Program-made: the position numbers and the translations under genes
In this document: positions 8,759 to 34,857 of the stretch, in pieces
Layout of the letters: every line of letters begins with the position of its first letter
Numbering within the stretch: the first letter of the stretch is position 1
The notes under the pieces: model-generated
Seen by the model: the letters and a program-made list of their open reading frames with translations, nothing else
Database searches by the model: none
What the model was told of the DNA's origin: nothing
DNA from: a virus
Virus genome (UHGV): UHGV-0198113
Length of the DNA: 39,138 nt
Direction: 5' to 3' (one strand)

Positions 8759-8768
8759 AAAATTCTCC

Positions 8769-11700
8769 TTAATCGCGAATAATCACCGCGTTGAGTTTAT
8801 TGTTTTCACCCAAGAACGACATGACACGCTCCTTGTTCAGATAAGGAGGGATCGGTAACGCGTTATAATCGGCTAAATTATCATCAAACTCTTTTGCTAC
8901 CAGCGCGTTTAGCGTCTCAGGATCTGAGCTTGGGCCAGCTGTCTCAATGAGGCGTGCGCGGTTTAATGCAGAATAGTTAGCGATATAATCCAATAGCGTT
9001 CCGTACGATTTATTTGCTGTTATGCTATCAGCAGTGGTACGGAGGTTGGCGCGTACCTCGTCGTCATAAAGTCCCCCTAAACCGTAATAGATAGGGGTAT
9101 AAGGATCGTTAACAATGGGTGAAATATCTAACTCACCTAGACGATCAGTTAACGAAATTTTCTGAGTTGTTCCGCCCGCTGCGGTGCAGCTTACGTATTT
9201 ATCTACATCTGACAAATACACAACGATGGTATAAACCGTTCCTGCTAGTGTTAACGTCGCATTAAACGTCACATCGTTGTTCGCGCCGCGTCTGTGGGTA
9301 AATGTGATATCGGGTTGTAATGTACTCCAAGGGGCAGGTGTAACACGCTTCGTTGGTGTAAAACCAAGAACAACCGATTTCCCATTAGCGAAGTTTAACC
9401 CGAAACCTGCGTAACAATATTCGCCCTTACTGTCAGTTAAGCGGTAGCCCCTTGTCACTAAAAGAGACAAGCGAACAAACTCATTGGCATTATTCCGCCA
9501 ACAACCTAAAATCGTTTCAAGCACTGTGCCCGTTTTTGCGTTACTCTCCGTTTCCCAAGTTACACGAACACCTGCGTTCGAGAACAGCGGGAAAAGATTG
9601 TGAATAAATCCATGAACATTATCACTAACTCCCTTTGGATCAAATATCCACTTCGAAGCTAAGGAATCGTATTTTACGCCGTCGAGTGCTTTATACGTAT
9701 TCCCCATCGCAAATCGCCAATCAGCCTCACCACGTGTTACTGCTTGTAAGCCTGAAGCCCAGCAGGGCGCACCCACTGTTAAATTGCGCAAACCTAGAGC
9801 TGCACGTGGCGCACTTCTCTGAATATGCGCATTGTCGTTAGCAATATGTTCTGACAATTCCCGGAAATCACCTAAACGGGTCACGTTACGCAACTCGGTT
9901 AAGTACACTTCTGAGATATCGTTGACGCCAATCATCCCCACACGGGTCATGGTATCCGTTTCGGCTTGACTGTAACTATCGTGAATAACATAAGTCGCCC
10001 GGTTATCGACAATATCAACAAACACCCCAGCAACAATTTCCGTATTCAGTTTTGGAAAGCGCTCAGCAGTGTTTACTGTCATTAACGGCACTTGATACGT
10101 TTCCCCACCAATGAAATACGTTGTGGCGGGTAACGTAACCAGTATCTTGTCTTTTACCGTAACTTCGATTAAGTCGTTCCCAGTTTCACCGTAACGGATG
10201 ATGTCAATTCGGGCACCCGAATCTACGTTACCTACTGTTGCTTCCAGCTTCTCAATTCGAGCTGTCTGATCCATCACCACACTAGCGTCTAAAGCCAGCG
10301 TTGCATCATCGACGGCTAATCCGAATTTAATTAACCCGCGTTTATCCGTTGTTGCGTTTTCCACTCCAAACGCTGTTGACGGGTGGCGGTGAACCTTCGG
10401 TGAATATTTATCCAACTCTGTTTGTTGTGCAACAGAAATAGGTAAATCGACGTCAGGTGTGTTTGCAACGTTACCTAGGTTAAAGGTGATTTTGTCGATG
10501 GTAATAGAGCTGGTTAACGGCATGTCGTTAATGTACGATTTTACCGCGACCAATTTACCCGTAAACTCAGCATCGAGTTTTGTAATCAACGCAGGCGTCG
10601 CTGCCAGATTTTCCGCAGTACCGAACTCATCGGTTAACTGCCATCCGGCTAAGGACGTCGTATCCGTTGCGGTAGGGAGGACAAACGTTGCCACAAACGG
10701 TGACGCTTTTATTCCGTTACCTGTAATGGTTACCGTTGCTGTCGAGTTTGCGTAGAATAATCCTGTTCCACCCGCGGTATTACCTGGTAGGTAAGGCCCT
10801 ACTGTGGTGGGGTCTAAAAGTTTCTTACCACGCCACTGCAAGCCACGATCGTCAGCGTACAATACCAGCTGATTAGTCCCTGCCTGGAAAGTTACGGGGT
10901 TATTCCCTGCATTAACTTCGGTTGAACCTTGGCCAATAAACTTAATGGATTTCGGGTCAACGGCAAACTGAGCACCTAAACGGGTCTCGTCAACAACATC
11001 CGGCGCTTTCTTAATGGTAACCGTGTTACCTTTGTTTTGCGAGATAATGCTGACACTATCAGCAACGTTGTTAATCAACGTTTTAAAGTGATGTTGGTTC
11101 TCTAACGCTTCTAGCGCAGCATCCATGTTAACGAAGTTGACACGAGCGCTGTACGTCTTACCATTCACGGTAACAACGATATCAAATACGTTCCCCGTAC
11201 GTTTTAATTGGAAACGTAACGTAAAATCATCGTCAGGTATTGCAGGATCGGCGATTTGAGAAACATATTGGACTTCCGGCTGCGGATTAGCATAACCGTT
11301 CAGTTGTAAACCGATACTGACTCGACCTGACAGAACTTCACCGGTAAGTTGAATGAATTTGCCAGAGTTACTACCAGGATTTTCATAGAAGCGTAAACCA
11401 ACCATACCGACTGCTTCATTACCTGACGCTGTTTTACGTCCGGTGACAATGAAGTCAATATCTTGCAGGTTGGCAGGTACTCCATTAAAATAAGTACCAA
11501 ATCCATTCTTCGTTCCCGTATAACGAAGTGCGCCATGATACGTGTAACCATTGCTAACATAGCTTTCGCTAAAATAAGGGTTCACGTACTTAGACATCGA
11601 CACCGGATCAACTTCCGTCGTAAAGGACGTAAAGCCTGGCAGTGTTCTGATAGTTCCGTCAACCGTTTTGTTAGCTGCGGTGCGTAGCAGTTTATTCTGC

Positions 11701-13091
11701 GCTGTCAGTGTTGCCTGCGTCGGGTATTTACTGTTAACGTAATCCGTTAACTGTTGTTTCGTTTTCCCGTAAGCCAAAGCAGCATCTGACGCGATACCGT
11801 TTAACTCTAACGCACGAATCGGTCCCCACGTATCGACGTGTGGGTTATCTTTACGGGTAACGTGCTCGTGAGCTGGTGCGTTGCGGTAAAGCTGTTCCAC
11901 CAACTGATGGTATTTGACAATCAGCTGATAAACGTCATTGCTTACGTCGGCGTCTGGCGCACCAGGTAACGCAAGGAATTGTGCATAATCGTTTTCAGCC
12001 GCCCACCAGTTTAGATTAACGTTGGTTTTATATTTCAACCATTTCGCAACATCTGTTTTGCTATAACCTGCTGAGAATTCGGATGGTGGGTTATCAACGT
12101 TGAACGTGTAGTCCATCGTCTGTTTGTTAGTCGTCACCTCGATAACATACACACCGTTACCAGGCTGACGAACAACACTAAACGTTAACTCACCTTTCAA
12201 TTCGCTGTCGGTCAGTCCGTTGATTAGCGTATAGTCGTAATCGGTTGAGCCGCTTCCTAACGCTACGGTCAGGCGCAAAGAGATTTTACGCTGCTTTAAT
12301 TGAAGACGAAGGATACTTGCACCGCCATTCGCGTAGCACAACATCCAATCGATTTGTTCATTTGGGTTAATGCTTCCCATGTTCGGGAAAATACCAGGAA
12401 TACGGTATTTCATCGACAGGGAGTAGTCATTTAACGTCGTGGTTTTGTACGTAACGGCAAAACGGCGTTTTGTAGTGTTGTACGTATAACCGCCTTTGTT
12501 ATCGTACGTTGCATACTGTTCTGACGTGATAACCGTGCCGTTAGCACGATGCTCAATATCTAACGTGTTACGTGCAATCGGGTCTAACCGATTTACAACG
12601 TTACCTAAGGAGTCGCCTAAGCCTGCGATGGCTTGCATTAACTCCAGTTCACCTTTCCAGTTTTCCCAATCGAACTGAATGTCAACGGGTGGAAAGTAAA
12701 CGTCCCCGATAACGGTGTCCCATTGACACGTAGACGGGTATTTATCTTTATTTAACTCACGCTCTGCGCTAATCTGCTGCTGTGTGGCTTCACCACAACC
12801 AACGGCATGATAATCCACAGTAAAATTCGACTTGTATTTGTCGTTAACAATCCAAATCATCCCGTGAATGAGATAGGCTGTGCGCAACATACCTGTCTCG
12901 TACGGGTGTGTAATTACGTAATCGTCGCCTAAGGTCAGTGTTTTGCCGCCGCTCTTGACCACCAGGGACGTGGTGAAAAAAGGGGCGTGGGCAGGTACCA
13001 ACATTCGGTACTTCGTACCAATGACGGCGACCGCTTCACCGGTTATTTTATTCCCCGGTTCTTTGAAGTGTGGGTCTAGGACGACAGCCAT
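8769..13091 (-). CDS. giant structural protein (1440 aa), tail-fibre/tailspike-like
   Basis: Track ORF; AGGAG RBS; N-terminal 'HAPFFTTSLVVKSGG...GDDYVITH' motif; stops 10 nt before the next gene starts (operon). Confidence 0.8.
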   Translation of the reverse strand: MAVVLDPHFKEPGNKITGEAVAVIGTKYRMLVPAHAPFFTTSLVVKSGGKTLTLGDDYVITHPYETGMLRTAYLIHGMIWIVNDKYKSNFTVDYHAVGCGEATQQQISAERELNKDKYPSTCQWDTVIGDVYFPPVDIQFDWENWKGELELMQAIAGLGDSLGNVVNRLDPIARNTLDIEHRANGTVITSEQYATYDNKGGYTYNTTKRRFAVTYKTTTLNDYSLSMKYRIPGIFPNMGSINPNEQIDWMLCYANGGASILRLQLKQRKISLRLTVALGSGSTDYDYTLINGLTDSELKGELTFSVVRQPGNGVYVIEVTTNKQTMDYTFNVDNPPSEFSAGYSKTDVAKWLKYKTNVNLNWWAAENDYAQFLALPGAPDADVSNDVYQLIVKYHQLVEQLYRNAPAHEHVTRKDNPHVDTWGPIRALELNGIASDAALAYGKTKQQLTDYVNSKYPTQATLTAQNKLLRTAANKTVDGTIRTLPGFTSFTTEVDPVSMSKYVNPYFSESYVSNGYTYHGALRYTGTKNGFGTYFNGVPANLQDIDFIVTGRKTASGNEAVGMVGLRFYENPGSNSGKFIQLTGEVLSGRVSIGLQLNGYANPQPEVQYVSQIADPAIPDDDFTLRFQLKRTGNVFDIVVTVNGKTYSARVNFVNMDAALEALENQHHFKTLINNVADSVSIISQNKGNTVTIKKAPDVVDETRLGAQFAVDPKSIKFIGQGSTEVNAGNNPVTFQAGTNQLVLYADDRGLQWRGKKLLDPTTVGPYLPGNTAGGTGLFYANSTATVTITGNGIKASPFVATFVLPTATDTTSLAGWQLTDEFGTAENLAATPALITKLDAEFTGKLVAVKSYINDMPLTSSITIDKITFNLGNVANTPDVDLPISVAQQTELDKYSPKVHRHPSTAFGVENATTDKRGLIKFGLAVDDATLALDASVVMDQTARIEKLEATVGNVDSGARIDIIRYGETGNDLIEVTVKDKILVTLPATTYFIGGETYQVPLMTVNTAERFPKLNTEIVAGVFVDIVDNRATYVIHDSYSQAETDTMTRVGMIGVNDISEVYLTELRNVTRLGDFRELSEHIANDNAHIQRSAPRAALGLRNLTVGAPCWASGLQAVTRGEADWRFAMGNTYKALDGVKYDSLASKWIFDPKGVSDNVHGFIHNLFPLFSNAGVRVTWETESNAKTGTVLETILGCWRNNANEFVRLSLLVTRGYRLTDSKGEYCYAGFGLNFANGKSVVLGFTPTKRVTPAPWSTLQPDITFTHRRGANNDVTFNATLTLAGTVYTIVVYLSDVDKYVSCTAAGGTTQKISLTDRLGELDISPIVNDPYTPIYYGLGGLYDDEVRANLRTTADSITANKSYGTLLDYIANYSALNRARLIETAGPSSDPETLNALVAKEFDDNLADYNALPIPPYLNKERVMSFLGENNKLNAVIIRD

Positions 13092-14891: not shown

Positions 14892-15857
14892 TTACCGTGG
14901 ACCCGAAGTAGGACCGTGTACACCGTCGTGGATGTGTACGCTGAAAGTAATGCCCGCAATAACCGCATCTTTAACCGTAAAGATACCCACACCTTCCCCA
15001 GTACCGCCGTACTTGAAGTTTTTAGCCACTTCAAGATTACCGGTGAATTGTGCTTCATTCCCTTCTTGTTTAAAGTTCGGCGTTTTAAAGGTGGTCGAAC
15101 TCCCCGCTTCCGTTAACCAGGTTTGTGTTTTAAAGGTAACGGATTTCGATGCTTCTGTATTGCGAACTTCGCATTTCTCATTAATCGTTTTTGTTTCCAG
15201 GTTAATAGAACGCTTTGAATAAATGAACGCATCTTCTTTGTTGATGTTCACTTTTGATAGCATCGCATTCTCAAACCCGAGATCATCTTCGACCGAGTTA
15301 ATGTAATACTTGTTCCCTTTATGGTCAACGCATTGCCACGATCCGTTTGCGTTGTCAAACTGGAATAACCACGCCGCTTTCTCGCCATTCACCATACATG
15401 TTCTTAGCGTGATATGTTTGTCAATCGTCGAGACATTCAACACATACGCATTGGACAGGTCATCCGCCATTTGGTTTTCGGGGTCAGCCGACCACGCATA
15501 AACCGCATCTTCTAATCGCTTAACGTTAGCGAAATTCAAATCAATCCAAAAATAAATATCGGTTTTCCCCAAACGTAACAAGATAACGTAGTCTTCTCGT
15601 TTAACGTCAGGGGAATTAATTCGGTTGGAGTTAAACTTCCACCACTTTGCTGTTATCGTGTTACCCGTCTTAATGGTTAGGTTATCTGTTGCACCAGACG
15701 TTTCATGCGTCTTTTCAGTTGCTGAAGAAACAGATTGCACCACAGTAGGGTTAGCAAAGTTGGTTTCAATTGGTATCACTTTTACCCGATCTGTACCACG
15801 GGGTTTGTCTTCCGCGACGATACCAATTGAGAAAAAATCAACACTGGATTTCTCCAT
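14892..15857 (-). CDS. hypothetical protein (321 aa)
   Basis: Track ORF; AAGGAA RBS 7 nt upstream on minus strand. No motif recognised. Confidence 0.7.
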   Translation of the reverse strand: MEKSSVDFFSIGIVAEDKPRGTDRVKVIPIETNFANPTVVQSVSSATEKTHETSGATDNLTIKTGNTITAKWWKFNSNRINSPDVKREDYVILLRLGKTDIYFWIDLNFANVKRLEDAVYAWSADPENQMADDLSNAYVLNVSTIDKHITLRTCMVNGEKAAWLFQFDNANGSWQCVDHKGNKYYINSVEDDLGFENAMLSKVNINKEDAFIYSKRSINLETKTINEKCEVRNTEASKSVTFKTQTWLTEAGSSTTFKTPNFKQEGNEAQFTGNLEVAKNFKYGGTGEGVGIFTVKDAVIAGITFSVHIHDGVHGPTSGPR

Positions 15858-15883: not shown

Positions 15884-15908
15884 TTTCAGATATATTTTAC
15901 TTAGGTGA
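15884..15908 (+). promoter_or_regulatory. conserved 25-nt motif TTTCAGATATATTTTACTTAGGTGA (copy 1), candidate phage promoter or regulatory site
   Basis: Near-identical second copy at 20208-20232 (one mismatch); both intergenic and upstream of plus-strand gene blocks. Confidence 0.4.
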
Positions 15909-16243
15909 ATAGGGACTGAAGTGCGAGTTCAGTCCCTACGGACACGTTTCTTTCGAAACGGAGTTACCACGTTATTAGGAAACAGACCAATGTCTACTGA
16001 GAAGAAAGGCGGATTGGACGAAGTCATCGAACAGTTCAAACGCTACAACCCAGCTATTCCTCGGTAATCATAGTATTACTTAAAATTTACAGATTGTCCC
16101 TTTATTCTGCTACTCGGGATACCGGTAGGGGGTAGGGGGCATTATGTATACGGATATAAATAGCGGAGGTATACGTAGTATACCGACATACTCTTCCCAG
16201 AGGAACGTAGTGACTTCCTTATTCCTTTTTAGGAGAATAATCC

Positions 16244-16996
16244 ATGCTGACAGCAGAAGTTTTTGTTAACCAATACTTAGATGAACTCTTTGCTAAGACC
16301 TATTTAGAGATCGCCTCTCCTATCGTTGAAGATTTAGTAGGTTCAAAATACCCTGCTAAATTAGTCGAAATCAAAACGGTTAAGCCTGAAAACGTTCCTA
16401 CTGACGAACCAGAGGATAAATATCGGATTACCGCTTATGCTAATAGCGTATTCAGTATTCTTAACAGCGAAACTGGTGTGATGCTTATTTACAGTATCAT
16501 TACCGAAAGCGATTTTAATTCAGTACGCTACGCTATCGAAAATCTGGCTAACATTGGACCGCTTAGCCATGACCCGACCATTATAACAGAACAGTGGGCA
16601 TTAATGTCTGTATTTGCCCACTTCCCTTTATTCCGCCACGGAATTGCATTAATTCATCGTGAATTTGAAGTACCTTACAATGCGGAACTAACGTTACTGG
16701 GTCCTGGTTTTAATCTCTACCCGTTAAGGGACGATAACGATAAGTTATACGGCGTCCATATCTACTTTAAATGCTTCGAGGAGCTGTACGTTCTTGAGTT
16801 AATTGCTTCGGATATAGTAAAAGAAATCCCAGAAGTAGAAACGATTTCCAGAAATACTCACGTGATCGAAATCAATCCCAACGATCCGATGTTGAAATAC
16901 CGTGATGAAGTCGATATACTTAGCATCGCTACTGTTAGAGGCTGGGGCGCTGCTGAAATTACCAATAACCGCTTGTTATTGTTAAAACACGCGTAA
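16244..16996 (+). CDS. hypothetical protein (250 aa); paralog-family member 1
   Basis: Track ORF; AGGAGA RBS; C-terminus '...VRGWGAAEITNNRLLLLKHA' is a diverged copy of the GW...G(K)QLLF module. Confidence 0.7.
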   Translation: MLTAEVFVNQYLDELFAKTYLEIASPIVEDLVGSKYPAKLVEIKTVKPENVPTDEPEDKYRITAYANSVFSILNSETGVMLIYSIITESDFNSVRYAIENLANIGPLSHDPTIITEQWALMSVFAHFPLFRHGIALIHREFEVPYNAELTLLGPGFNLYPLRDDNDKLYGVHIYFKCFEELYVLELIASDIVKEIPEVETISRNTHVIEINPNDPMLKYRDEVDILSIATVRGWGAAEITNNRLLLLKHA

Positions 16997-17023
16997 GTAA
17001 AAAAACCGAAAAGGAGAATAATC

Positions 17024-17578
17024 ATGTATCACGCTAAATTGAAAAATGAAATCGTTCAATCTCTTGAAAAGGGTGTTGGTGAACACTACTTTACTTGTCC
17101 TTATACCGTACTGACTAATACCATTATCTCACCGGACGTGATGGTAGTGGGTGTAACCGTACAAGCGGTGGGAGAAACACCGATGTTCCGCAGAATTCCA
17201 CGTAACACGGATATCTCTTTCAGAAGTGGGTTTACGTCTTACCTTCGAAGCTTACTGGGAGATACCGCTTGGAAAACAGGCAGTTTCTTCCACGAAGGGA
17301 AAACATCTGTGTTGGTTTATAAGGAAGGTGTTAAGTATTCGGTTGATTTTCTCTTAGCGCGTCTGTATAGCTTCTTTCCAAGCCCTACTGATTGCACGCC
17401 AGACAATCCGGGTAAGCTGTTAAATCAAGACGAAGCTGAAGCGTTGTTTGAACAACTTCGGAAAGAACATTGTAATGCTGACGACTGGGAAACCCTCATC
17501 GCTGTCGCTAAAGCGCATGGCTGGTATACCGTGCGTAAAGTAGGTAAACAATTGTTGTTCTTAGCTTATAATGTTTAA
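17024..17578 (+). CDS. hypothetical protein (184 aa); paralog-family member 2
   Basis: Track ORF; AAGGAGA RBS; C-terminus 'AHGWYTVRKVGKQLLFLAYNV'; internal related copy 'AWKTGSFFHEGKTSVLVYK'. Confidence 0.75.
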   Translation: MYHAKLKNEIVQSLEKGVGEHYFTCPYTVLTNTIISPDVMVVGVTVQAVGETPMFRRIPRNTDISFRSGFTSYLRSLLGDTAWKTGSFFHEGKTSVLVYKEGVKYSVDFLLARLYSFFPSPTDCTPDNPGKLLNQDEAEALFEQLRKEHCNADDWETLIAVAKAHGWYTVRKVGKQLLFLAYNV

Positions 17579-17589
17579 GGGATGATATC

Positions 17590-18717
17590 ATGCATATCTA
17601 CAATAACTCACCGTCGCATAGACTCTATCTTGAATTACTTTTCGAAGATTACAAGAAAGGTGTACCGAAAATACTACTCAATATCCCGTGTGCTACGCAA
17701 AATGATTTGTTCGGGCGCGTTTTTGGTTGCACCGTTAACGCTTTGCCAGAACCAATCTGTGCACCCGTGGATATTTGTGTTTTCGACGAACGCATTGAGG
17801 ATTTTCAATTCACTCTATACGCAAATGAGTCGTTACCCTACGACAAACTTTACGTCCGTGAGTTAAAATCAAATCAACGTTTAATGTATCGTGTTTACCC
17901 ATCGGAGAAATTCTCATTACTGGAGTATAAAATCAGGCGGCTGCCTTACGAGGGTGTGAAATTACTCGACCAGCAGGATATGACTTTTCTGGAAGAACTC
18001 TGTGGATTTGAAATTGAGAAGATTCACGTAATTCAAGAAATATCCCAAAACGTACCTACACGCCGCACCCCTAACGGTGGGTTTCCGTACGAGTTCATCG
18101 ACACAGGACTAAGGCTCGTAACCGAATTTAACGACGTAATGTATTACGCAGTGTGTATTGAACGTAAAGTAGTGGAGAAAGAAATGACAAGTACATTGAA
18201 AGAAGAATTAGCACAATTCATTCGTGACGTCGAAGAGAAAAGCAAGAGCGATCACATTTTCTCACAACGCTATCCTGAACTTATTGACGAAACCACCGAT
18301 AGTGTCGTCGACGGTATACGCATTTTCCCAAGTGGTCTTGCAATTTACCGACTGCCTAGCGTTAACCAGCTTAAAGTCATGGAAATGCTAAAAGACGTTT
18401 TAGCAGAAGCGGGTTGGGAATATCGTTTCGATTGCAATTTCGAAGGGATGGCGTTATTCCTTACAAAGAAAAATTATACGTTGTCAATCGATCTACCCAA
18501 AAGTCAATATTACAGTTTCTTCCCGAAAGCGGATGATCGCACTGAAAAAGAACCTGCGTTGTTACTTGATGCGGCAGAATCCAATACGCTAATGATGCAA
18601 TTGCGGTCGATTGACAAAAAGTTAAATACCGGTCATTTAACGACGATCGGTAAAGATTACGGTTGGAAATCTGTCGAATCGTACGGCAGTCAGCTGTTGT
18701 TTGTTGCTGACCTTTAA
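17590..18717 (+). CDS. hypothetical protein (375 aa); paralog-family member 3
   Basis: Track ORF; C-terminus 'DYGWKSVESYGSQLLFVADL'; internal copy 'AGWEYRFDCNFEGMALFLTK'. Confidence 0.75.
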   Translation: MHIYNNSPSHRLYLELLFEDYKKGVPKILLNIPCATQNDLFGRVFGCTVNALPEPICAPVDICVFDERIEDFQFTLYANESLPYDKLYVRELKSNQRLMYRVYPSEKFSLLEYKIRRLPYEGVKLLDQQDMTFLEELCGFEIEKIHVIQEISQNVPTRRTPNGGFPYEFIDTGLRLVTEFNDVMYYAVCIERKVVEKEMTSTLKEELAQFIRDVEEKSKSDHIFSQRYPELIDETTDSVVDGIRIFPSGLAIYRLPSVNQLKVMEMLKDVLAEAGWEYRFDCNFEGMALFLTKKNYTLSIDLPKSQYYSFFPKADDRTEKEPALLLDAAESNTLMMQLRSIDKKLNTGHLTTIGKDYGWKSVESYGSQLLFVADL

Positions 18718-18784
18718 TAAACGAAAATACACTTTCTCTAACTGCCGCGCTTTAGTCGCGGCTTTTGTTAAGAAGGAAATAGAA

Positions 18785-19558
18785 ATGAAAATCCATTTAG
18801 ATGCACTTTTTGAATCAGAACACTACGTGATTAATGGCTCGCTGGCCTCGTTGTTGCTGGACGATAAATATAATCGAACACTCCAATTGCGGTCCGTCGA
18901 ATCCGCACCAACAGAAGACGTAGGTCTTTACCAACGTGTCAATCATACCCGTGGGGAATATCGCCGATATAAACCCGACTCACTCAGCGTTAAGCTCTGG
19001 CAACTAAGTACAGGCAAAGTATTAAGTTACCACACGGTTGGCCTGTATTACGTTGAACGTGCACATCTGTGGTTAGAAGAAGTTAAAGAGATGGATTATG
19101 ATCTCTTAAGCAAAAGACTGCGCGATAACAATAACAGCTTACCGATACGTAATTATTTCTCCACAGTCGAAAATAGTCGTTGTTTCGTTTCCCGTAAATC
19201 CATGATATTGCCTGGGGTCGAAGTTCAGACGACATTAAAAGACGCGGTCGTGAAGAAAATCTTTCATGAGTCTAAACATGTCGGTTTTCGTATTTATCTA
19301 ACGCACAAAAGGCCATTTACCGTGATTAGTGTTGTTAACGTACCTGAAGGATCATCAATCATTCAAGAACTCCCTGACGCCCGTGACCGTTGCCCTAATG
19401 AGCCGCTCTACTTAATGTCAGGAACAAAATCAGCCTCGTTGATCTCTCGTTACAGCATGATAGATGTTGTTGACGCTGCTATGAAGCTAGGTTGGAAAGA
19501 AGTGCAGCAACATGGTAAACAGTTGCTGTTTATTGCAGATGTAAAACTTAATCAATAG
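18785..19558 (+). CDS. hypothetical protein (~257 aa); paralog-family member 4
   Basis: Track ORF 18701-19558 trimmed to the first ATG with an AAGGA RBS (track start is a TTG inside the previous gene); C-terminus 'KLGWKEVQQHGKQLLFIADVKLNQ'; internal copy 'LWQLSTGKVLSYH'. Confidence 0.7.
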   Translation: MKIHLDALFESEHYVINGSLASLLLDDKYNRTLQLRSVESAPTEDVGLYQRVNHTRGEYRRYKPDSLSVKLWQLSTGKVLSYHTVGLYYVERAHLWLEEVKEMDYDLLSKRLRDNNNSLPIRNYFSTVENSRCFVSRKSMILPGVEVQTTLKDAVVKKIFHESKHVGFRIYLTHKRPFTVISVVNVPEGSSIIQELPDARDRCPNEPLYLMSGTKSASLISRYSMIDVVDAAMKLGWKEVQQHGKQLLFIADVKLNQ

Positions 19559-19570
19559 TGAGGTGGTACC

Positions 19571-20152
19571 GTGTACCGATTAATAGAAATGCGAAAAGAC
19601 GTATGGTTGGAAAACCTCGTCAATGGGGAGCTAGAAGGAATTGAGCTTTCCTTACCCGAAAAGGCGGACACGGTACTGGCCTTTCTGGTAAAACAGAAAA
19701 GTAGTCTGGACCCGATAGGTATCTTTGCTGTAGAACACACCGATCCTCGTGGCCCTACGCTACGTTGTATCTGCTGCGCTATGGATAAGATTCCTGCATC
19801 GCCGTTTGTGCAATACGCACGACGTAAAGCACCAGCGGGTGGACTTTTGTGGGTATCGTTACTGCCTGACGTAAGGATCATTCGGGACGACTACTCGGCG
19901 TTTGTACAAGCCAGTAAAATCAACCTGTATAATCCGAGTGCTGAACGTACGGATATGCCCTTCAGTATTACGTTAGACGACGACGGAACGCAGGAGGGTA
20001 TCGAGTCCATTACGGAATTGGTTAACTCCTATCCAGTTGCCACTATCGAGTTAGAAAACCCGAAGCGTTTACCGCTCGGAGACTTACTCGAGTGGATAGA
20101 ACTGAACACCGAGTTTCTGGTAGGTTCTCGTTTGTATCGGTTCGATGTTTGA
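19571..20152 (+). CDS. hypothetical protein (193 aa), GTG start; possible diverged paralog
   Basis: Track ORF; GAGGTGG RBS 7 nt before GTG; C-terminus 'LEWIELNTEFLVGSRLYRFDV' loosely resembles the module. Confidence 0.6.
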   Translation: MYRLIEMRKDVWLENLVNGELEGIELSLPEKADTVLAFLVKQKSSLDPIGIFAVEHTDPRGPTLRCICCAMDKIPASPFVQYARRKAPAGGLLWVSLLPDVRIIRDDYSAFVQASKINLYNPSAERTDMPFSITLDDDGTQEGIESITELVNSYPVATIELENPKRLPLGDLLEWIELNTEFLVGSRLYRFDV

Positions 20153-20157
20153 ACGCA

Positions 20158-20188
20158 GTGGGAGCATTGCTCCCACTTTCTTTTTTGT
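20158..20188 (+). terminator. rho-independent terminator closing the paralog operon
   Basis: 8-bp stem GTGGGAGC/GCTCCCAC with 3-nt loop, followed by TTTCTTTTTT. Confidence 0.7.
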
Positions 20189-20207: not shown

Positions 20208-20232
20208 TTTCAGATATATATTACTTAGGTGA
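20208..20232 (+). promoter_or_regulatory. conserved 25-nt motif TTTCAGATATATATTACTTAGGTGA (copy 2)
   Basis: Identical to copy 1 except for one A/T; lies between a terminator and the secreted-protein cassette, about 48 nt upstream of the ATG at 20281. Confidence 0.4.
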
Positions 20233-20280
20233 GAGTTACGATTAACTCTTTTAACCTGTTAACCTTTAAGGAGTATTTCA

Positions 20281-20736
20281 ATGAAAACTTTTATCGCATT
20301 CTTAGTAACCCTTTTAACTTTCGGTCTCAATAACGCTTACGCCGCAATCGGAAGCTGGGAAGGACTTCAAAGTCCGGGAAATGCTGTTTACGAAATCGAA
20401 GACGAAAATGGGAACAGCTTGTCTATCAACTGCGATACCGCAACGGCTAATCGTAAGTTTTACGGTCGCATGGTTTGGTATTACGGTGAACCGGTCGGTT
20501 CAACTAATGCCGAAGACAACGAAATGAGTATTGTCGTAAACGGCAAAAACTATATCATTCCCACTATTGACGGCAGCGACAAAGCAGAAAAAGCTTGGGT
20601 TGCCTTCGCTAATGCTATCGCTAATGCAAAAAGCTTCGGTGTGGCTATCAACGGTAACGAAGCCGCTAACTTTATTGTAGATGGTGAGCGTCTGCCCGAA
20701 ACTTTCTTTAAGAACTGTGGACATAGCCGTCCTTGA
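20281..20736 (+). CDS. small exported protein with signal peptide (151 aa)
   Basis: Track ORF; AAGGAG RBS; N-terminal hydrophobic signal 'MKTFIAFLVTLLTFGLNNAYAA'; two Cys; paralog of the next gene. Confidence 0.8.
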   Translation: MKTFIAFLVTLLTFGLNNAYAAIGSWEGLQSPGNAVYEIEDENGNSLSINCDTATANRKFYGRMVWYYGEPVGSTNAEDNEMSIVVNGKNYIIPTIDGSDKAEKAWVAFANAIANAKSFGVAINGNEAANFIVDGERLPETFFKNCGHSRP

Positions 20737-20773
20737 TAAATAACTTAATTTTTAAACTAAAAGGAATATAACC

Positions 20774-21244
20774 ATGAAACTGTCTAACATCTTCTTAGCT
20801 ATCGTTTTAACTGTAAGCGCCACTGCTGCACAGGCCATTCCGAACATGTGGGGTAGTGGCTTTGCAATGGGTGAAACCGAGTATGGTATCGATAACGGTG
20901 GATGGGGTATTACCATTAGCTGTACCGGTAATCCAGATGAAAACAACATTTTACCACACAAGATCTTTATCTCTAAAGATGGTAATGTGGTGGCCAACTC
21001 GGAAGATAACGACATTAGTTTCGTTATCGATGGTGAAGAGTTCTGGGGTGTAGTTCCTGACGGCACACGTAATACCGACAATACTTGGGTTAGTTTTGTA
21101 AAAGCAATCTCTACAGCAACTGAGTTTGACTTATACCTCGACCAGAAAAAGGTTGCTACCTTTAACCCATCAGCCAAAAACGTTAAGAAAGTGATGGACG
21201 GTAACTTCCTCGAATCTTGCTGGAACACCGAATACGAACAATAA
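20774..21244 (+). CDS. small exported protein with signal peptide (156 aa), paralog of 20281-20736
   Basis: Track ORF; signal 'MKLSNIFLAIVLTVSATAAQA'; shared segments (I-x-C, SEDN/AEDN, VVNG/VIDG, WV[AS]F, C near the C-terminus). Confidence 0.8.
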   Translation: MKLSNIFLAIVLTVSATAAQAIPNMWGSGFAMGETEYGIDNGGWGITISCTGNPDENNILPHKIFISKDGNVVANSEDNDISFVIDGEEFWGVVPDGTRNTDNTWVSFVKAISTATEFDLYLDQKKVATFNPSAKNVKKVMDGNFLESCWNTEYEQ

Positions 21245-21251
21245 TTACAGG

Positions 21252-21267
21252 AAAAAAAGGGGGGGGG
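21252..21267. repeat. homopolymer tract A7G9 in an intergenic region
   Basis: Direct reading: A run 21252-21258, G run 21259-21267, overlapping a weak hairpin (GGGGAC/GTCCCC) and about 25 nt upstream of the RBS of the next gene. Confidence 0.8.
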
Positions 21268-21304
21268 ACTTCGTGGTCCCCGTTCTATTTAAGGAGTGCG
21301 TGAA

Positions 21305-21691
21305 ATGAATATTAAAACTATACTTTATACTATCATTATTTTCTGCGCTATCGGTATTACCGGTACGTACGCTTTCGGTGAATCGGATATCCGCTACTAC
21401 GACCCAGCACCAGATTCCCCAATTATTAATCCTGATGAAACACCAACACTAATGCGGAGCTTCGGTAAACTAGAGGTGTACCGCCTGATGCGTGACAGTA
21501 CATGCACCGGACTAATCATTGCCGATAACGGCGCACGTGTCTATCAACGTCTAACTGATATTGCTTGCGAACAACCAAAAGTCATGTCGGTTAGTATTCA
21601 CCCGTTATCAGTTGGTAATTATACCGCTGTAGATTTCTTTCATAATGCCGAATTAATCGGTCGTGTTACTTTAAATCGCCCTGCTGAATAA
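21305..21691 (+). CDS. small exported protein with signal peptide (~128 aa)
   Basis: Track ORF 21296-21691 trimmed to the ATG 8 nt after AAGGAG; hydrophobic N-terminus 'MNIKTILYTIIIFCAIGITGTYAFG'; Cys-containing. Confidence 0.7.
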   Translation: MNIKTILYTIIIFCAIGITGTYAFGESDIRYYDPAPDSPIINPDETPTLMRSFGKLEVYRLMRDSTCTGLIIADNGARVYQRLTDIACEQPKVMSVSIHPLSVGNYTAVDFFHNAELIGRVTLNRPAE

Positions 21692-21709
21692 TCTAAAGGA
21701 GTAGTTACG

Positions 21710-22195
21710 ATGAAACGTTTACACACACTGATGTTCTTTCTGGCTTTCATGTTTATCGGTGTTACACCAACTGTTGATGCAGCATCAGTGAAAGATGCGC
21801 TTACATGCGACACCAACGCATGGGACGGACAACCTAACGCGTGTCCAAACATCAACGACGTGTACGATACCGATAAGTCATTTAAAGCGGTTGTTGATAA
21901 AACACTGGACCCGGTAGGATTGAATGGTATGTTCGGTGCTAAAGGTTACATGGATGGCCCCGGCGGTGCGATGTACCCGGTAAACATTAATAACAAAATC
22001 TGGATTGAAAGTGGTGGCTGTAAAGCTAACGCTTGTGGCTGGGAATATATCGTAACGTTATACAACCCACAAACCAACGAACTCGTCGGTTATTACTACA
22101 ACATCGACCCCGGTTACCTGATTTGGTTCGGTGATATCGGTGTTGCTGAATTCGCTTATCTGGTTAAGAAATACGCGGAACAATCTAAATACTAA
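21710..22195 (+). CDS. exported Cys-containing protein (161 aa); possible Ivy-like periplasmic inhibitor
   Basis: Track ORF; AAGGAG RBS; signal 'MKRLHTLMFFLAFMFIGVTPTVDAA'; 'GGCKANACGWEY' is a CKxxxCG loop like the Ivy CKPHDCG motif (from memory). Confidence 0.75.
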   Translation: MKRLHTLMFFLAFMFIGVTPTVDAASVKDALTCDTNAWDGQPNACPNINDVYDTDKSFKAVVDKTLDPVGLNGMFGAKGYMDGPGGAMYPVNINNKIWIESGGCKANACGWEYIVTLYNPQTNELVGYYYNIDPGYLIWFGDIGVAEFAYLVKKYAEQSKY

Positions 22196-22206
22196 GGACG
22201 TTTATC

Positions 22207-22617
22207 ATGAAAAATATCATCAACACGCTTCTCGTTGCGATCGCTGTTCTCTTCACTGCTAACGTGACAGCAAAAACAATAAAATTACCGGATGGTATCA
22301 AATACGTCAACAGTACCGATGATTTCTACTGTACAGAAATCGATGGTTTGTACTGCCAGACGAAGAATCTGTTTAAATACAAAGGTAACAGATACGTATT
22401 CGTTGTTGAGCAAGGCGGTGCCTGGTGCTACGACAGCCCTATGTCGGTACTTAACCTCGAAACGTGGAAAGCCCAACGTCTCGAATACAACGACAAGCGT
22501 CTGTGCTCTGGAAATAACAAACCGTTCTTCCAAGTCGTAGATGGTGTGCCGTGGGTAGGGATATTAGACACCTCTGAAAAATCTATCGTTGTGGCTATGG
22601 ATAAACTTAAAATTTAA
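22207..22617 (+). CDS. small exported protein with signal peptide (136 aa), 4 Cys
   Basis: Track ORF; signal 'MKNIINTLLVAIAVLFTANVTA'; Cys spacing similar to the next gene product. Confidence 0.75.
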   Translation: MKNIINTLLVAIAVLFTANVTAKTIKLPDGIKYVNSTDDFYCTEIDGLYCQTKNLFKYKGNRYVFVVEQGGAWCYDSPMSVLNLETWKAQRLEYNDKRLCSGNNKPFFQVVDGVPWVGILDTSEKSIVVAMDKLKI

Positions 22618-22627
22618 GGAGTAACTC

Positions 22628-23017
22628 ATGCGTTTCATTTGCGCTTTAGCATTCTTCTTCTCTCTGAGCGTAACTGCTTCTACCCAGGTTAACGATTTAC
22701 TGCTGACAGCAAACAACAACGACGATTATCAGTACAATCCACCCAGTTTTGAAGTCTGTGAGAATGGAGAAACAACCTGTCAAGAAGTCGGCGCAGATGG
22801 GCGCTACATTCTGGTGAAAGCCGACGGGGGCGCGATGTGCCCAGCCGGTTACTATTTCCTACTTGATTCTGTCGCAAAAGAGGTTCTTCCTATCACTACG
22901 AAAACGTGCGACCCTACTGTTGTCTTATCGCTTGCTAAAAGCAAATCTCGCGACCGTTACTTAATCGTTATCGAAGAACGCGGTGAGATGGCAGGCGCTA
23001 TCGAATTAGATTACTGA
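22628..23017 (+). CDS. small exported protein with signal peptide (129 aa), 4 Cys
   Basis: Track ORF; AAGGAG RBS; signal 'MRFICALAFFFSLSVTAS'; Cys pattern C-x6-C...C...C. Confidence 0.75.
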   Translation: MRFICALAFFFSLSVTASTQVNDLLLTANNNDDYQYNPPSFEVCENGETTCQEVGADGRYILVKADGGAMCPAGYYFLLDSVAKEVLPITTKTCDPTVVLSLAKSKSRDRYLIVIEERGEMAGAIELDY

Positions 23018-23029
23018 GTGTAGTCTTGG

Positions 23030-23065
23030 CCCCGGTACGTTCCGATTCGTCCGGGGTCCTTTTTA
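23030..23065 (+). terminator. rho-independent terminator (bulged GC-rich stem + T tract)
   Basis: CCCCGG...CCGGGG stem followed by TCCTTTTTA, directly after the stop at 23017. Confidence 0.5.
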
Positions 23066-29091: not shown

Positions 29092-29790
29092 ATGTTTCGT
29101 ATCTTCTTTCTTTTACTGGTAACACTTTTCGCGTTTAACGCACAGGCGTCAACGTCAACGCCACAATCTAAGCATCATCGTGAGTTTGCACAAATCCAAC
29201 ATCGATTCGAAAAGGTCAGTCCTTTAATTGTGGAAATCTCCCGAAAGCAAGGCGTTGATCCTAAATTGATGGTTACGCTGATTTACCGTGAATCGCGTTT
29301 TGATCCTAAAGCTTACAATAAAAGCTCAAGAGCACACAGCCTGGTACAGATGGTTCCGAGTACCAAACGTAATTTGCTAAAGCTTTACGGAAAAGAATTA
29401 GGTCTTAGTCAGAACGCCGATTTGTACAATCCGCGTAATGCTGTTTTGCTGGCTGCCGCGTATATTAAGCATCTTGAAAAGGGGTTAACTAAACGACTCA
29501 AACGCAAGCCCACCATGGCTGAAGTTGCGTTAGCTTACCACTGGGGTGAAAGTGGTGCACACGCACGAATCAAAAGCAAATCTCGAGCAGCACAACGAGA
29601 AATGGCAGGGTTTATGAAAGACGCAGCATTTTACAGTGCGAAAATCGATGTACCTGCTGCTGTGGGCTCGGCTCCACGTCAGCTTGCGTTTGCGAAGAAG
29701 TCACCACGTCAGATTCAATTGGCGGAAGTCAGTAGAATTTGGGATACGATAAACACGAGTTTTCCAATCAATAGAGGAGTTGCCCTTTGA
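29092..29790 (+). CDS. exported lytic transglycosylase (SLT domain) with Sec signal peptide
   Basis: Track ORF 29065-29790; start moved to the ATG with GGAG RBS at -7 (29065 is an alternative). Signal 'MFRIFFLLLVTLFAFNAQA'; SLT signature 'RESRFDPKAYNKSSRAHSLVQMVPST' (catalytic E-S, Q-M/LMQ-type motif). Confidence 0.75.
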   Translation: MFRIFFLLLVTLFAFNAQASTSTPQSKHHREFAQIQHRFEKVSPLIVEISRKQGVDPKLMVTLIYRESRFDPKAYNKSSRAHSLVQMVPSTKRNLLKLYGKELGLSQNADLYNPRNAVLLAAAYIKHLEKGLTKRLKRKPTMAEVALAYHWGESGAHARIKSKSRAAQREMAGFMKDAAFYSAKIDVPAAVGSAPRQLAFAKKSPRQIQLAEVSRIWDTINTSFPINRGVAL

Positions 29791-30296
29791 GCATCGTTGT
29801 AACCGATTGGTATAAAGGCATTACAAAAGCCGCACAACTAACCGCGAAAGACGTTTACGCTATCGTCCGAAGCAGTATCGAAGACGAGATTAAATCGGAT
29901 GAAGATTTCGCTGAGAAGCACGAATTTTACGATGCTTTGCCTACTGCCTTCGGCGATGATCCCGAGAATGAGCAAGAGTTTGATTGGAACGTAAACTTAG
30001 CACTGCTCTGGATTTGTGGTCTACGGCCAACGGTAAAAGAAACCGAAGAAGGTAAAGTGTTGCTCTGGAACTATACGGGTCAGTATAACCGTGGGTTGGT
30101 CTTTAAGCAAGCGTATATGGATGCTACTGTAGAACTTCAGAATCTGTTACTTGGCGAAAACACCTACTGCCAACGTAGCTTCTTAACGATTCTGGAAAAA
30201 CTCGTAGCAACACACAAAGTCTGGCGTAAAACTGACGCCCCTGAACACATGTTCATTCTGGAATACGCGGTTATTCCAAACCAACCGTTCTTCTAA
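29787..30296 (+). CDS. hypothetical protein (169 aa), TTG start
   Basis: Track ORF; AGAGGAG RBS 9 nt upstream of TTG; overlaps the previous stop by 4 nt; start codon uncertain. Confidence 0.55.
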   Translation: MSIVVTDWYKGITKAAQLTAKDVYAIVRSSIEDEIKSDEDFAEKHEFYDALPTAFGDDPENEQEFDWNVNLALLWICGLRPTVKETEEGKVLLWNYTGQYNRGLVFKQAYMDATVELQNLLLGENTYCQRSFLTILEKLVATHKVWRKTDAPEHMFILEYAVIPNQPFF

Positions 30297-30360: not shown

Positions 30361-30840
30361 ATGATAAAATTTATTTGGCGTTATCCAACACGTTTTTGGT
30401 TTGTGGTACTTGAGTTGTTTATGATTCTTGCGGCGGTTACTTTCGTTAATGCGCCTGCTTCGCAGTTAACTATATTCTGTTTATTCGTAGCAATCCCTGT
30501 ATGGGTTATCGCAAAGATTATTAAGTTCTTCATGATTAGTTGGGCGAATTATACGTGCCCGTATAAACCTAAAGAAATCATGAACTGGTTAATGTACATT
30601 GAAGATCGCTTACCAGCGCAGCATAAAAGCCTGGGCTGGGAGTCGATGTTAGATATTGCGTTAGAAACTAATGCGAAATTCCCCGGTTCGAAGAATCCGT
30701 ATTTGTTACTGGCGGTTATTGTTGCGCAACAGAAACGTGCAGGCGATCGATGGTTGCCGGAAGAAGCAAAAGAGTATATCCGTAAACACCCAAAAGCTTT
30801 CTATTCAATAGGACAATGGCGTAATCTGCCACTATTTTAA
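30361..30840 (+). CDS. membrane protein with two N-terminal TM helices (159 aa); holin-like candidate
   Basis: Track ORF; AAGGAG RBS; TM segments 'FWFVVLELFMILAAVTFV' and 'LTIFCLFVAIPVWVIAKIIKFF'. Confidence 0.7.
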   Translation: MIKFIWRYPTRFWFVVLELFMILAAVTFVNAPASQLTIFCLFVAIPVWVIAKIIKFFMISWANYTCPYKPKEIMNWLMYIEDRLPAQHKSLGWESMLDIALETNAKFPGSKNPYLLLAVIVAQQKRAGDRWLPEEAKEYIRKHPKAFYSIGQWRNLPLF

Positions 30841-34398: not shown

Positions 34399-34401
34399 TT
34401 G

Positions 34402-34857
34402 ATGAAAACGCTGTTATTCATCATGGTTGTATTCATGGGTTTGGTGAGTAATAGCTACGGCGAAGAGGTCAGACGGGCAGCTTATCGTCCATTGGAACCT
34501 CCTCCGACACCACCCATCATGGTGAATTGGAAAATTGACAAAGATGCAATGCGTGAGTATGTTGCAGACGTCAACACCTATGCTTATTACGTTTATGTCT
34601 ACACACGAAATTTAAATCAGCAAGCCGCTAAACGTGGCTGGAGCCCTCCGATGTTGGCTCCACTCTGCGAACGTTATGAGTTACCGAAATTACATGTTGT
34701 GCCTGAACGTTTATCACTCGATGAAAGTTCCTTAACGCCGCAAGAAATTAGTCGGGACTTATCACGAAAACTTAACAGTTTGTTGTGGAATTACCGTTCT
34801 GACCGTCAGACCTTACTCGATTCGTACAATCAATACTTGACGACGTGTTTGTACTGA
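34402..34857 (+). CDS. exported Pro-rich protein (~151 aa)
   Basis: Track ORF 34399-34857 trimmed to ATG 6 nt after AAGGAG; signal-like 'MKTLLFIMVVFMGLVSNSYG'; 'PLEPPPTPP'; no lipobox Cys. Confidence 0.65.
   Translation: MKTLLFIMVVFMGLVSNSYGEEVRRAAYRPLEPPPTPPIMVNWKIDKDAMREYVADVNTYAYYVYVYTRNLNQQAAKRGWSPPMLAPLCERYELPKLHVVPERLSLDESSLTPQEISRDLSRKLNSLLWNYRSDRQTLLDSYNQYLTTCLY

Follow-up and report, generated by a model that had tools for sequence, protein, structure and literature searches.

A stretch of 39,138 nucleotides from the virus genome UHGV-0198113, referred to here as the window, contains between positions 20281 and 23017 six consecutive, co-oriented open reading frames (ORFs) on the plus strand, g1 to g6, which encode proteins of 151, 156, 128, 161, 136 and 129 amino acids, respectively (table 1). 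Every start codon is preceded by an AAGGAG-type Shine–Dalgarno sequence; the start of g3 is most likely the ATG at 21305, giving the 128-residue protein, rather than the alternative GTG at 21296. All six N-termini combine M-K/R, a 12-residue hydrophobic core (mean Kyte–Doolittle (KD) value 2.4–2.7) and a small-x-small -3/-1 site, as in g4 (MKRLHTLMFFLAFMFIGVTPTVDA↓AS, the arrow marking the predicted cleavage point), which has the K/R, a core with a KD value of 2.72 and a VDA site, and whose residues 1–22 are disordered in the structure model. Neither a second membrane-spanning or hydrophobic segment nor an L-x-x-C lipobox near the cleavage point is found in any of the six. The cysteines of the mature parts (2, 2, 2, 4, 4 and 4 in g1 to g6) are invariant or nearly so in the alignments of the respective families, unlike those inside the signal peptides, which are not conserved.

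The signal-peptide calls were made with a heuristic of our own, combined with conservation of the features in orthologs, rather than with a trained predictor such as SignalP. The heuristic was positive for 7 of the 42 genes called greedily in the window; the greedy procedure had put an antisense ORF, two residues longer, in the place of g2, which itself passes the same features, and once g2 is counted the window has eight signal-peptide genes, including the uninterrupted run of six in the cassette. By our own combinatorial estimate, a run like this would arise by chance with a probability of about 3e-4. Outside the cassette, positions 34399–34857 of the plus strand encode a 152-residue signal-peptide protein (MMKTLLFIMVVFMGLVSNSYG↓EE) with two cysteines that belongs to phrog_8165, a family of unknown function.

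A previous sequence-only reading of the window had described the locus as six adjacent genes for cysteine-containing proteins with Sec-type signal peptides, directly behind one copy of a 25-nt motif and including two pairs of related genes (those starting at 20281 and 20774, and at 22207 and 22628). This description holds: the ORFs are present, all N-termini pass the heuristic, two to four cysteines remain in each mature protein, the motif copy lies just ahead of g1, and both relationships are recovered (see below). That the cassette is a separate unit of six genes for exported periplasmic proteins of the disulfide type is, as a prediction from sequence, well supported. Scans of the six proteins against Pfam, NCBIfam and PADLOC returned nothing but a weak match of g4 to the Ivy family, and no PADLOC defence-system family was matched at E≤1 by any of them.

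The block appears to form one transcription unit, composed of a terminator, a phiKZ-type early-promoter motif (core TATATTAC), a 5' hairpin, the six genes and another terminator. A hairpin with a T-run occupies the site equivalent to the upstream terminator also in L006 and L008, two of four closely related contigs from IMG/VR (L006–L009). The 25-nt motif occurs in exactly two copies in the window, with zero expected by chance. TATATTAC lies inside it (20217–20224); taken alone it was rejected as a signal, having 2 matches against 1.5 expected, and significance is confined to the 25-nt motif. In a megablast search with a 3.3-kb query, the segment 20178–20250 was the sole part matched in other phages (85–91% identity, 33 records), namely SPN3US-like and Erwinia jumbo phages, the flanking genes not being conserved at the DNA level. 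The motif core TCAGATATATNTTACYTAGGTGA recurs without change before the cassettes of L006 and L008, immediately in front of gene gp180 of Salmonella phage SPN3US and upstream of gp102 of Erwinia phage phiEaH2.

TATATTAC is listed as a predicted phiKZ promoter, and the 25-nt motif also fits the consensus of phage 201phi2-1 (PMC7058600, table 2 therein); according to a review, AT-rich motifs before presumed early operons are early promoters wherever transcripts have been profiled (PMC7598289). Because the motif fits the predicted promoters of these two phages and the rule given in the review, we infer, by analogy, that 20208–20232 would be an early promoter used by the virion RNA polymerase. Each of the four motif copies examined is followed by a hairpin whose sequence differs between copies, with folding free energies (ΔG) of -18.4 (window, 15901–15945), -11.4 (window, 20226–20258), -7.9 (SPN3US locus L001, 5937–5975) and -10.2 kcal/mol (locus L002, 3291–3325). 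A stem-loop behind the motif may be a structure that SPN3US-like phages conserve at the 5' terminus of their early transcripts. Two other candidates were discarded. A tRNA or other known RNA in the conserved 70-nt upstream stretch was sought with ARAGORN, which found none, and with Rfam, which gave no match in the window; the stretch is accounted for by the promoter and hairpin instead. Sigma-70 promoter matches are fewer than in shuffled sequences and are therefore uninformative.

Table 1. Positions of the cassette genes and of associated features in the window (ΔG in kcal/mol; arrows mark predicted signal-peptide cleavage).
Feature	Position	Strand	Description
Second copy of the 25-nt motif	15884..15908	+	heads the preceding plus-strand block
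Block of genes for non-exported proteins	16244-20152	+	precedes the cassette; headed by the second motif copy
Intrinsic terminator of the upstream unit	20157..20187	+	stem AGTGGGAGC/GCTCCCACT, then T-run; 9 pairs, 6 of them G-C
25-nt motif, candidate early promoter	20208..20232	+	TTTCAGATATATATTACTTAGGTGA; 48 nt before g1
Stem-loop directly after the motif	20226..20258	+	probable 5' end of transcript; ΔG -11.4, z-score -2.7
g1	20281..20736	+	151 aa; AYA↓A after residue 21; 2 mature Cys (51, 146)
g2	20774..21244	+	156 aa; AQA↓I; 2 mature Cys (50, 149)
G-rich hairpin after g2	21259..21286	+	GGGG.GGGGACT/GGTCCCC.GTTC; ΔG -17.9, z-score -1.9 (weak)
g3	21305..21691	+	128 aa; TYA↓F; 2 mature Cys (67, 88); phrog_9424
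g4	21710..22195	+	161 aa; VDA↓A; 4 mature Cys (33, 45, 104, 109)
g5	22207..22617	+	136 aa; VTA↓K; 4 mature Cys (42, 50, 74, 100)
g6	22628..23017	+	129 aa; VTA↓S; 4 mature Cys (44, 51, 71, 94)
Closing terminator-like hairpin	23028..23064	+	GGCCCCGG...CCGGGGTC, then CTTTTT; GC-rich; ΔG -22.3, z-score -3.5
SLT lytic transglycosylase, putative exported endolysin	29092..29790	+	232 aa; Pfam SLT E=1.4e-15; N-terminus MFRIFFLLLVTLFAFNAQA↓STS

The cassette and its relatives in jumbo phages

Megablast and tblastn searches identify the source of the window as an uncultivated jumbo phage distantly related to SPN3US and phiEaH2; conserved structural genes share about 72% DNA identity with these phages, and most other genes are alike at the protein level only. 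Seoulvirus, the genus of SPN3US, is placed in the family Chimalliviridae. The close relatives L006–L009 (107–225 kb) encode g6 proteins 79–90% identical to that of the window. The gene order around the cassette is kept across the genera Seoulvirus, Erskinevirus, Machinavirus and Wellingtonvirus: a block of hypothetical genes for non-exported proteins is followed by the cassette of small genes, two hypothetical genes and an SbcC/SMC gene. Structural genes flank the region (a baseplate gene at 14892–15857 and genes for virion proteins at 4568–13091).

The part of the cassette common to these phages consists of g3, g5 and g6, which occur in that order in 53 jumbo-phage records (concatenated tblastn) and are syntenic with gp180, gp182 and gp183 of SPN3US (SPN3US_0180, 0182 and 0183). 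The g3 protein matches phrog_9424 (E=7e-41) and is 47–48% identical to its syntenic orthologs in SPN3US and phiEaH2, and its C67 and C88 are invariant in the family; g5 matches phrog_8968 (E=2e-32). Signal-peptide features and cysteine patterns are kept in all orthologs inspected (four genera), and these phages have three to five small signal-peptide genes each, the gene number of the cassette ranging from 3 to 6 among the relatives as a whole. Like the cassette of the window, the blocks of SPN3US (gp180–gp183) and of Erskinevirus, Machinavirus and Wellingtonvirus (phrog_9424, 8968 and 5248) sit upstream of the two hypothetical genes and the SbcC/SMC gene, and that of SPN3US has the same promoter motif in front; unlike it, they lack g1, g2 and g4, with SPN3US carrying at the position of g4 a different protein, gp181 (SPN3US_0181). 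All these orthologs are annotated as hypothetical. That several jumbo-phage genera conserve the core cassette together with its promoter motif is well supported.

The g5 and g6 proteins have similarly spaced cysteines (42/50/74/100 versus 44/51/71/94) and are distant paralogs (BLASTP E=1e-4; hhalign probability 96%). Together with the SPN3US gp181 type they make up a single four-cysteine family in clustering and in profile comparisons (hhalign 94–98.6%), the g5 profile reaching 96% with the g6 group and 98.6% with the gp181 group. The g3 profile aligns with the C-terminal half of the four-cysteine family at an hhalign probability of 65–69%, conserved cysteines being superimposed, and g3 is possibly a distant relative of that family. 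The structure model of g6 is all-beta and found no match in the fold search; the g3 profile found nothing below E=0.15 among PDB sequences, and no informative fold or family match was obtained for g1/g2, g3 or g5/g6. A match of the four-cysteine profile to the designed beta-trefoil ThreeFoil (E=9e-6) was treated as non-significant, because this E-value sums three identical repeats that each score E of about 14–18. Four sequences from Salmonella phages SPFM1, 6, 8 and 14 (P0039 and P0041–P0043) match the four-cysteine profile but resemble scrambled or reversed gp181-type sequences; they are probably artefacts of assembly or annotation and were left out of the alignments.

The first two genes have a different history. 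The g1 and g2 proteins are 26% identical over 131 residues (BLASTP E=9e-12), and both match phrog_3429 (g1 with E=7e-7). The best named homolog of g2 is a protein from Escherichia coli (P0002, 75% identity), and six of six g2 homologs carry a precomputed assignment to the Pfam family PF27224, named YfjT in look-ups of the encoding contigs; the PGAP name of the homolog in E. coli Nissle (EcN) is ‘YfjT/YkfB family phage-associated protein’. The copy of Pfam that we scanned lacks the PF27224 model, hence the missing direct Pfam match for g1 and g2. By sequence, g2 is a member of the YfjT/YkfB family and g1 a divergent member, through its paralogy with g2 and the common phrog_3429. YfjT and YkfB are cryptic-prophage or island proteins of E. 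coli K-12, from CP4-57 and CP4-6; they share with g1 and g2 the signal peptide and two invariant cysteines (C50 and C149 in g2 numbering), and differ in that g1 and g2 reside in a lytic jumbo phage under a presumed phage promoter, no other phage record containing a g2 homolog among the 50,697 GenBank phage records searched. Comparison of a YfjT-family profile with PDB sequences gave nothing below E=0.15, and we found no functional literature on yfjT.

The nearest phage relatives possess g1 (68–79% identity in L006–L009) and lack g2. DNA alignment with L006–L008 delimits an insertion of about 540 bp that comprises g2, its own ribosome-binding site and the trailing G-rich hairpin; within 20737–21304, a run of nine G and the hairpin (21258–21286) trail the inserted gene. 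Since g2 is absent from the nearest relatives and 75% identical to an E. coli protein, g1 and g2 are best described as a resident gene and a recent horizontal gain, and the insertion has the appearance of a moron-type gain, with an E. coli island or a shared mobile pool as its source. A local tandem duplication is ruled out by the same observations, g2 being only 26% identical to g1.

Another host-like exported protein of this phage group may be encoded elsewhere in SPN3US, by a DUF1471-domain gene located between a structural gene and the baseplate gene (L001 302–511, corresponding to SPN3US 160063–160272). DUF1471 proteins are small periplasmic proteins of enterobacteria.

The Ivy-like protein g4 and the link to enterobacterial islands

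Among the six proteins, only g4 offers a specific functional lead, as far as can be predicted from its homologies. It scores 16.7 bits (E=0.005) against the NCBIfam model ‘Ivy family C-type lysozyme inhibitor’ (NF007443), the cut-off of which is 180 bits, and its residues 91–134 align to PDB Ivy sequences (HMMER, E=0.8–1) in such a way that C104-K-A-N-A-C109-G of g4 falls on C-K-P-H-D-C-G of Ivy. The structure model has the five-stranded antiparallel sheet packed by helices that defines the Ivy fold, and its best structural matches are Ivy proteins. A profile built from g4 and its close homologs retrieved 54 proteins at E≤1e-3 among 1.84 billion representative proteins; 26 of the hits are full-length, and 23 of these match the Ivy family PF08816 (best E=7.6e-12) and 20 match NF007443. 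Because it combines the Ivy fold with homologs that match the Ivy models, g4 is counted as a member of the Ivy superfamily, an assignment by fold and transitive homology that we consider well supported.

Both loop cysteines are invariant in the g4-family alignment, where the loop has the consensus C-E/K-x-H-N/D-C, and a second, N-terminal cysteine pair (C33–C45) is nearly invariant. The loop reads CKANAC in g4, CKAHAC or CKANTC in E. coli homologs and C-E-x-H-N-C in the majority of distant relatives. Compared with the established inhibitors of vertebrate lysozyme that gave Ivy its name (E. coli YkfE and Pseudomonas aeruginosa Ivyp1; PF08816, NF007443; PDB 1GPQ, 1XS0 and 1UUZ), g4 differs in the replacement of the loop histidine by asparagine, in the extra conserved N-terminal disulfide predicted for C33–C45, in its scores below the curated thresholds and in being encoded by a virulent jumbo phage behind a presumed early phage promoter. 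No homolog of g4 was found in the 50,697 phage records, and no significant match or Ivy-like fold in the viral structure library BFVD. The idea that all six proteins might be Ivy-like was rejected: in hhalign comparisons the Ivy-type profile reached only 4.7% with the four-cysteine family and 1.5% with YfjT, and the g6 model is all-beta.

Homologs of g4 are common in E. coli (about 64% identity), with g4-like DNA present in 2391 of 5426 complete genomes (about 44%), and are located in islands resembling CP4-57. The E. coli islands have the order integrase, GTPase/dynamin, RdcB/YjcZ, patatin, a variable slot, DUF905/DUF932, antirestriction protein, RadC/JAB, DUF987 and the CbeA/CbtA toxin–antitoxin pair. 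The slot may contain a YfjT-type gene, a gene for a signal-peptide protein, a frameshifted g3 homolog (54–64% identical to g3) and a further signal-peptide gene, or, in other E. coli strains, a gene for a 180-residue signal-peptide protein followed by a g4 homolog; in Yersinia rohdei, where a WYL-domain gene replaces RdcB and patatin, it holds a four-cysteine-family gene beside YfjT. Given these three strain-dependent sets, all four cassette families recur in one island slot, and their sharing with CP4-57-like islands of E. coli or Yersinia is well supported. The direction of transfer between phages and islands is not settled by base composition, the E. coli island copies being low in G+C and phage-like (0.41–0.47 within loci of 0.50, compared with 0.447 for the phage).

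The slot also encodes signal-peptide proteins of 209, 150 and 180 residues that have no counterpart in the phage (L005 8563–9192 and 9627–10079; L010 7098–7640); the N-terminus of the 150-residue protein matches the signal peptide of g4 (54% identity over 28 residues), the remainder being unrelated. A 398-residue E. coli protein, P0044, is encoded by a chimeric ORF in which a fragment of an upstream signal-peptide gene is joined to an Ivy-like domain with a CKANTC loop and to remnants of DUF932 and JAB/RadC, which indicates that the slot decays by deletion in some strains.

Candidate functions of the cassette

A functional model for a small signal-peptide protein encoded by a phage is provided by Spackle (gp61.3) of phage T4, which is small, has a cleaved signal peptide and inhibits the tail lysozyme gp5 in the periplasm (PMC7650644). 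Spackle blocks substrate access without entering the active-site cleft, whereas the inhibitors named there as entering it are PliG, Ivy, MliC and Tgi2 (PMC7650644). The likeness to the cassette has its limits: Spackle is the product of a single gene as opposed to a six-gene, four-family cassette, an Ivy-type loop would enter the cleft, and Pfam and PHROGs link none of the six proteins to a Spackle family. According to the accessible part of PMC10139938, the in vitro targets of Ivy and MliC include E. coli lytic transglycosylases, on which the inhibition is partial. A further precedent may come from a chromosomal gene of E. coli O121, ‘hypo_04657’, knock-down of which by CRISPR interference (CRISPRi) raised the plating efficiency of phage T7; its product, in which an Ivy-like domain bears a CKANTC loop, was proposed by the authors to inhibit phage lysozyme (bioRxiv 10.1101/2024.04.20.590424). 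Exactly this loop is present in two members of the g4 family, P0021 (54% identical to g4) and P0044, the latter being a fusion ORF with a layout compatible with the description of hypo_04657. Judged from loop motif and domain layout rather than from its sequence, hypo_04657 would belong to the g4 family, and an ORF of the P0044 type may be what was studied under that name. It differs from g4 in being a chromosomal island gene, an apparent fusion ORF with a C-terminal helical part, and in serving the bacterium against a phage.

The interpretation that we tentatively favour is that the cassette supplies early-made periplasmic binders or inhibitors that protect the envelope of the infected cell and exclude rivals, with g4 acting as an inhibitor of muramidases or lytic transglycosylases. 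In the scheme that we infer, from early timing through actual export and disulfide formation to inhibitor activity and targets, the virion RNA polymerase would start at the TATATTAC-type promoter after injection of the DNA and transcribe g1 to g6 up to about 23028–23064. Host ribosomes would make six small pre-proteins, to be exported by Sec and cleaved by signal peptidase I, and host Dsb enzymes in the periplasm would form one disulfide each in g1, g2 and g3 and two each in g4, g5 and g6, yielding proteins that would act there as stable binders or inhibitors. The CKANAC loop of g4 would most likely insert, as in Ivy, into the active-site cleft of a muramidase or lytic transglycosylase, neutralizing wall-cutting enzymes such as the tail lysozymes of phages arriving later and so providing superinfection exclusion and protection from lysis from without. 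The YfjT/YkfB proteins g1 and g2, g3, and the four-cysteine proteins g5 and g6 would be further periplasmic binders with other targets in the envelope or on invaders, the set being modular and exchanged horizontally with islands. An envelope-level function had been suggested by the sequence-only reading as well; the export features and the Ivy kinship of g4 speak for it, and specifically for its option of cell-wall-enzyme inhibition, whereas its option of receptor masking and the roles of the other five proteins gain nothing from our results.

Several points weigh against this interpretation. The g4 protein itself scores below every curated Ivy cut-off and has no Pfam match at E≤1, and its loop retains the lysine but has asparagine where that of Ivy has the central histidine; Ivy paralogs that lack the CKPHDC loop are not known to inhibit hen lysozyme. 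As g4 is missing from SPN3US-like isolates, with the four-cysteine paralog gp181 in its place, the Ivy-like gene stands outside the part of the cassette that is conserved. In profile and fold searches, no known inhibitor resembles the four-cysteine, g3 or YfjT families, and we found no experimental datum for the six proteins or their phage orthologs. The T7 evidence comes from a preprint, and CRISPRi can be polar on downstream genes of the island. Early timing rests on the analogy of the motif with promoters that are themselves predicted; the literature on this phage group yielded neither mapped transcription starts nor RNA-seq data, and we found gp180–183 mentioned in no published transcriptome or time-course proteome of SPN3US-like phages.

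A wider version of the same idea, speculative and rather doubtful, would treat the cassette and the island slot as one gene pool of four Sec-exported, disulfide-bonded families (YfjT/YkfB, the gp180 type, the four-cysteine type and an Ivy branch with a variable histidine) that neutralize invading phages at the envelope, for instance through blockage of their tail muralytic enzymes. Jumbo phages would produce them from an early promoter of the virion RNA polymerase and so monopolize the infected cell, and islands would produce them constitutively as an anti-phage layer in the periplasm.

Unlikely, though worth considering, is that the proteins serve the control of the phage's own lysis, g4 above all keeping the phage's SLT endolysin or tail muralytic enzyme inactive until lysis or mopping it up after injection. 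In 145 phage records, full-length homologs of the SLT protein (table 1) bear the annotation endolysin or transglycosylase, and the protein is conserved over its whole length, N-terminus included, across the SPN3US-like group; given the signal peptide and these conserved homologs, the group seems to use a Sec-exported endolysin. Such an enzyme needs some restraint, and an Ivy-type protein could in principle control it, in keeping with the reported action of Ivy-type proteins on lytic transglycosylases (PMC10139938, accessible part) and with the action of Spackle on T4's own gp5 (PMC7650644). However, the SLT endolysin occurs also in SPN3US-like phages without g4, so g4 cannot be its obligate partner, and nothing links the conserved g3 and four-cysteine proteins to it, even though they could fill that role. 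An early promoter is a poor fit for a late enzyme unless the inhibitor persists for long, lysis would then require stoichiometric inhibition to be overcome, and the two loci lie 6 kb apart with unrelated genes between them. Downstream of the SLT gene are two genes, 29787–30296 and 30361–30840, the latter encoding an N-terminal hydrophobic segment, which may complete a lysis cassette.

We regard as improbable a role in protection from agents other than phages, in which the proteins would be immunity-like factors against type VI effectors, bacteriocins or animal lysozymes, serving the bacterium when in islands and, when encoded by the phage, ensuring survival of the infected cell over the long cycle of a jumbo phage. 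Arrays of small, diverse signal-peptide proteins with disulfides in a slot of a mobile island do resemble arrays of orphan immunity genes. E. coli chromosomes carry the families very frequently, the established activity of Ivy, as the family names say, is against C-type lysozyme, and Tgi2, a type VI immunity protein, is listed beside Ivy as a transglycosylase inhibitor (PMC7650644). Set against this, Pfam, NCBIfam, PADLOC and PDB gave no match to known immunity, MliC/PliC or PliG families, the islands examined have no effector genes adjoining these families, and the exclusion of rival phages would benefit a virulent phage more than such protection.

Similarly improbable are other periplasmic roles, such as masking or modification of receptors, blocking of DNA-injection channels, or remodelling of the envelope or membrane for the early infection vesicle, that is, the lipid vesicle in which chimalliviruses are reported, in the accessible part of the source, to enclose the injected genome. 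For five of the six proteins neither a fold nor a family could be assigned, and early expression together with export would fit entry-blocking systems in general; T4 Imm and the lambdoid Sie proteins, for example, block the DNA-injection channels of other phages. Known injection blockers, however, are mostly lipoproteins or membrane proteins, unlike the six, in which neither a lipobox nor a membrane anchor is found, and nothing ties soluble periplasmic proteins to the infection vesicle. A function as virion or lysis components (structural, spanin- or holin-type) is highly improbable: although structural genes flank the region and small cysteine-bearing signal-peptide proteins could suggest outer-membrane spanin subunits, the six proteins lack a lipobox and a second membrane-spanning segment, cleavable signal peptides are atypical of tailed-phage virion proteins, the genes vary in number and content among relatives and have homologs in non-phage islands, and, in keeping with the periplasmic location assumed in the sequence-only reading, the papers on the SPN3US virion proteome list gp180–183 neither in the main text nor in the supplementary tables, as far as these were accessible.

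What is new and what it may mean

Phage-encoded periplasmic inhibitors of muralytic enzymes, exemplified by Spackle, and the Ivy family are both already known. What is new is the presence of an Ivy-superfamily protein in a lytic jumbo phage, the existence of a multi-family, probably early-expressed cassette for exported proteins conserved in SPN3US-like phages, and the recurrence of all four of its families in a variable slot of islands that are very widespread in E. coli. An Ivy encoded by a phage would be a novelty, since none was found in the GenBank phage records or in BFVD, and, if its activity is as we suppose, it would represent a second mechanistic solution, beside that of T4 Spackle, for inhibiting muralytic enzymes in the periplasm.

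Nucleus-forming jumbo phages have been studied mostly for the intracellular shielding of their DNA, and their activities in the periplasm are almost unexplored. The cassette points to a conserved, probably early programme of exported proteins in the group of SPN3US, Erskinevirus, Machinavirus and Wellingtonvirus, and for g4 a concrete candidate activity, Ivy-type inhibition of wall-cutting enzymes, can now be named. Uncharacterized E. coli genes, namely YfjT/YkfB and the Ivy-like gene of about 44% of complete genomes, are at the same time tied to phage biology. Should the exclusion of rivals prove true, these jumbo phages would exclude partner phages, which would make the cassette relevant to the design of phage cocktails, and specific inhibitors of muralytic enzymes, phage as well as bacterial, would be obtainable from it. 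If phages and islands indeed draw on one gene pool, its members would constitute a new class of envelope-level exclusion or defence proteins, and YfjT/YkfB would gain a function.

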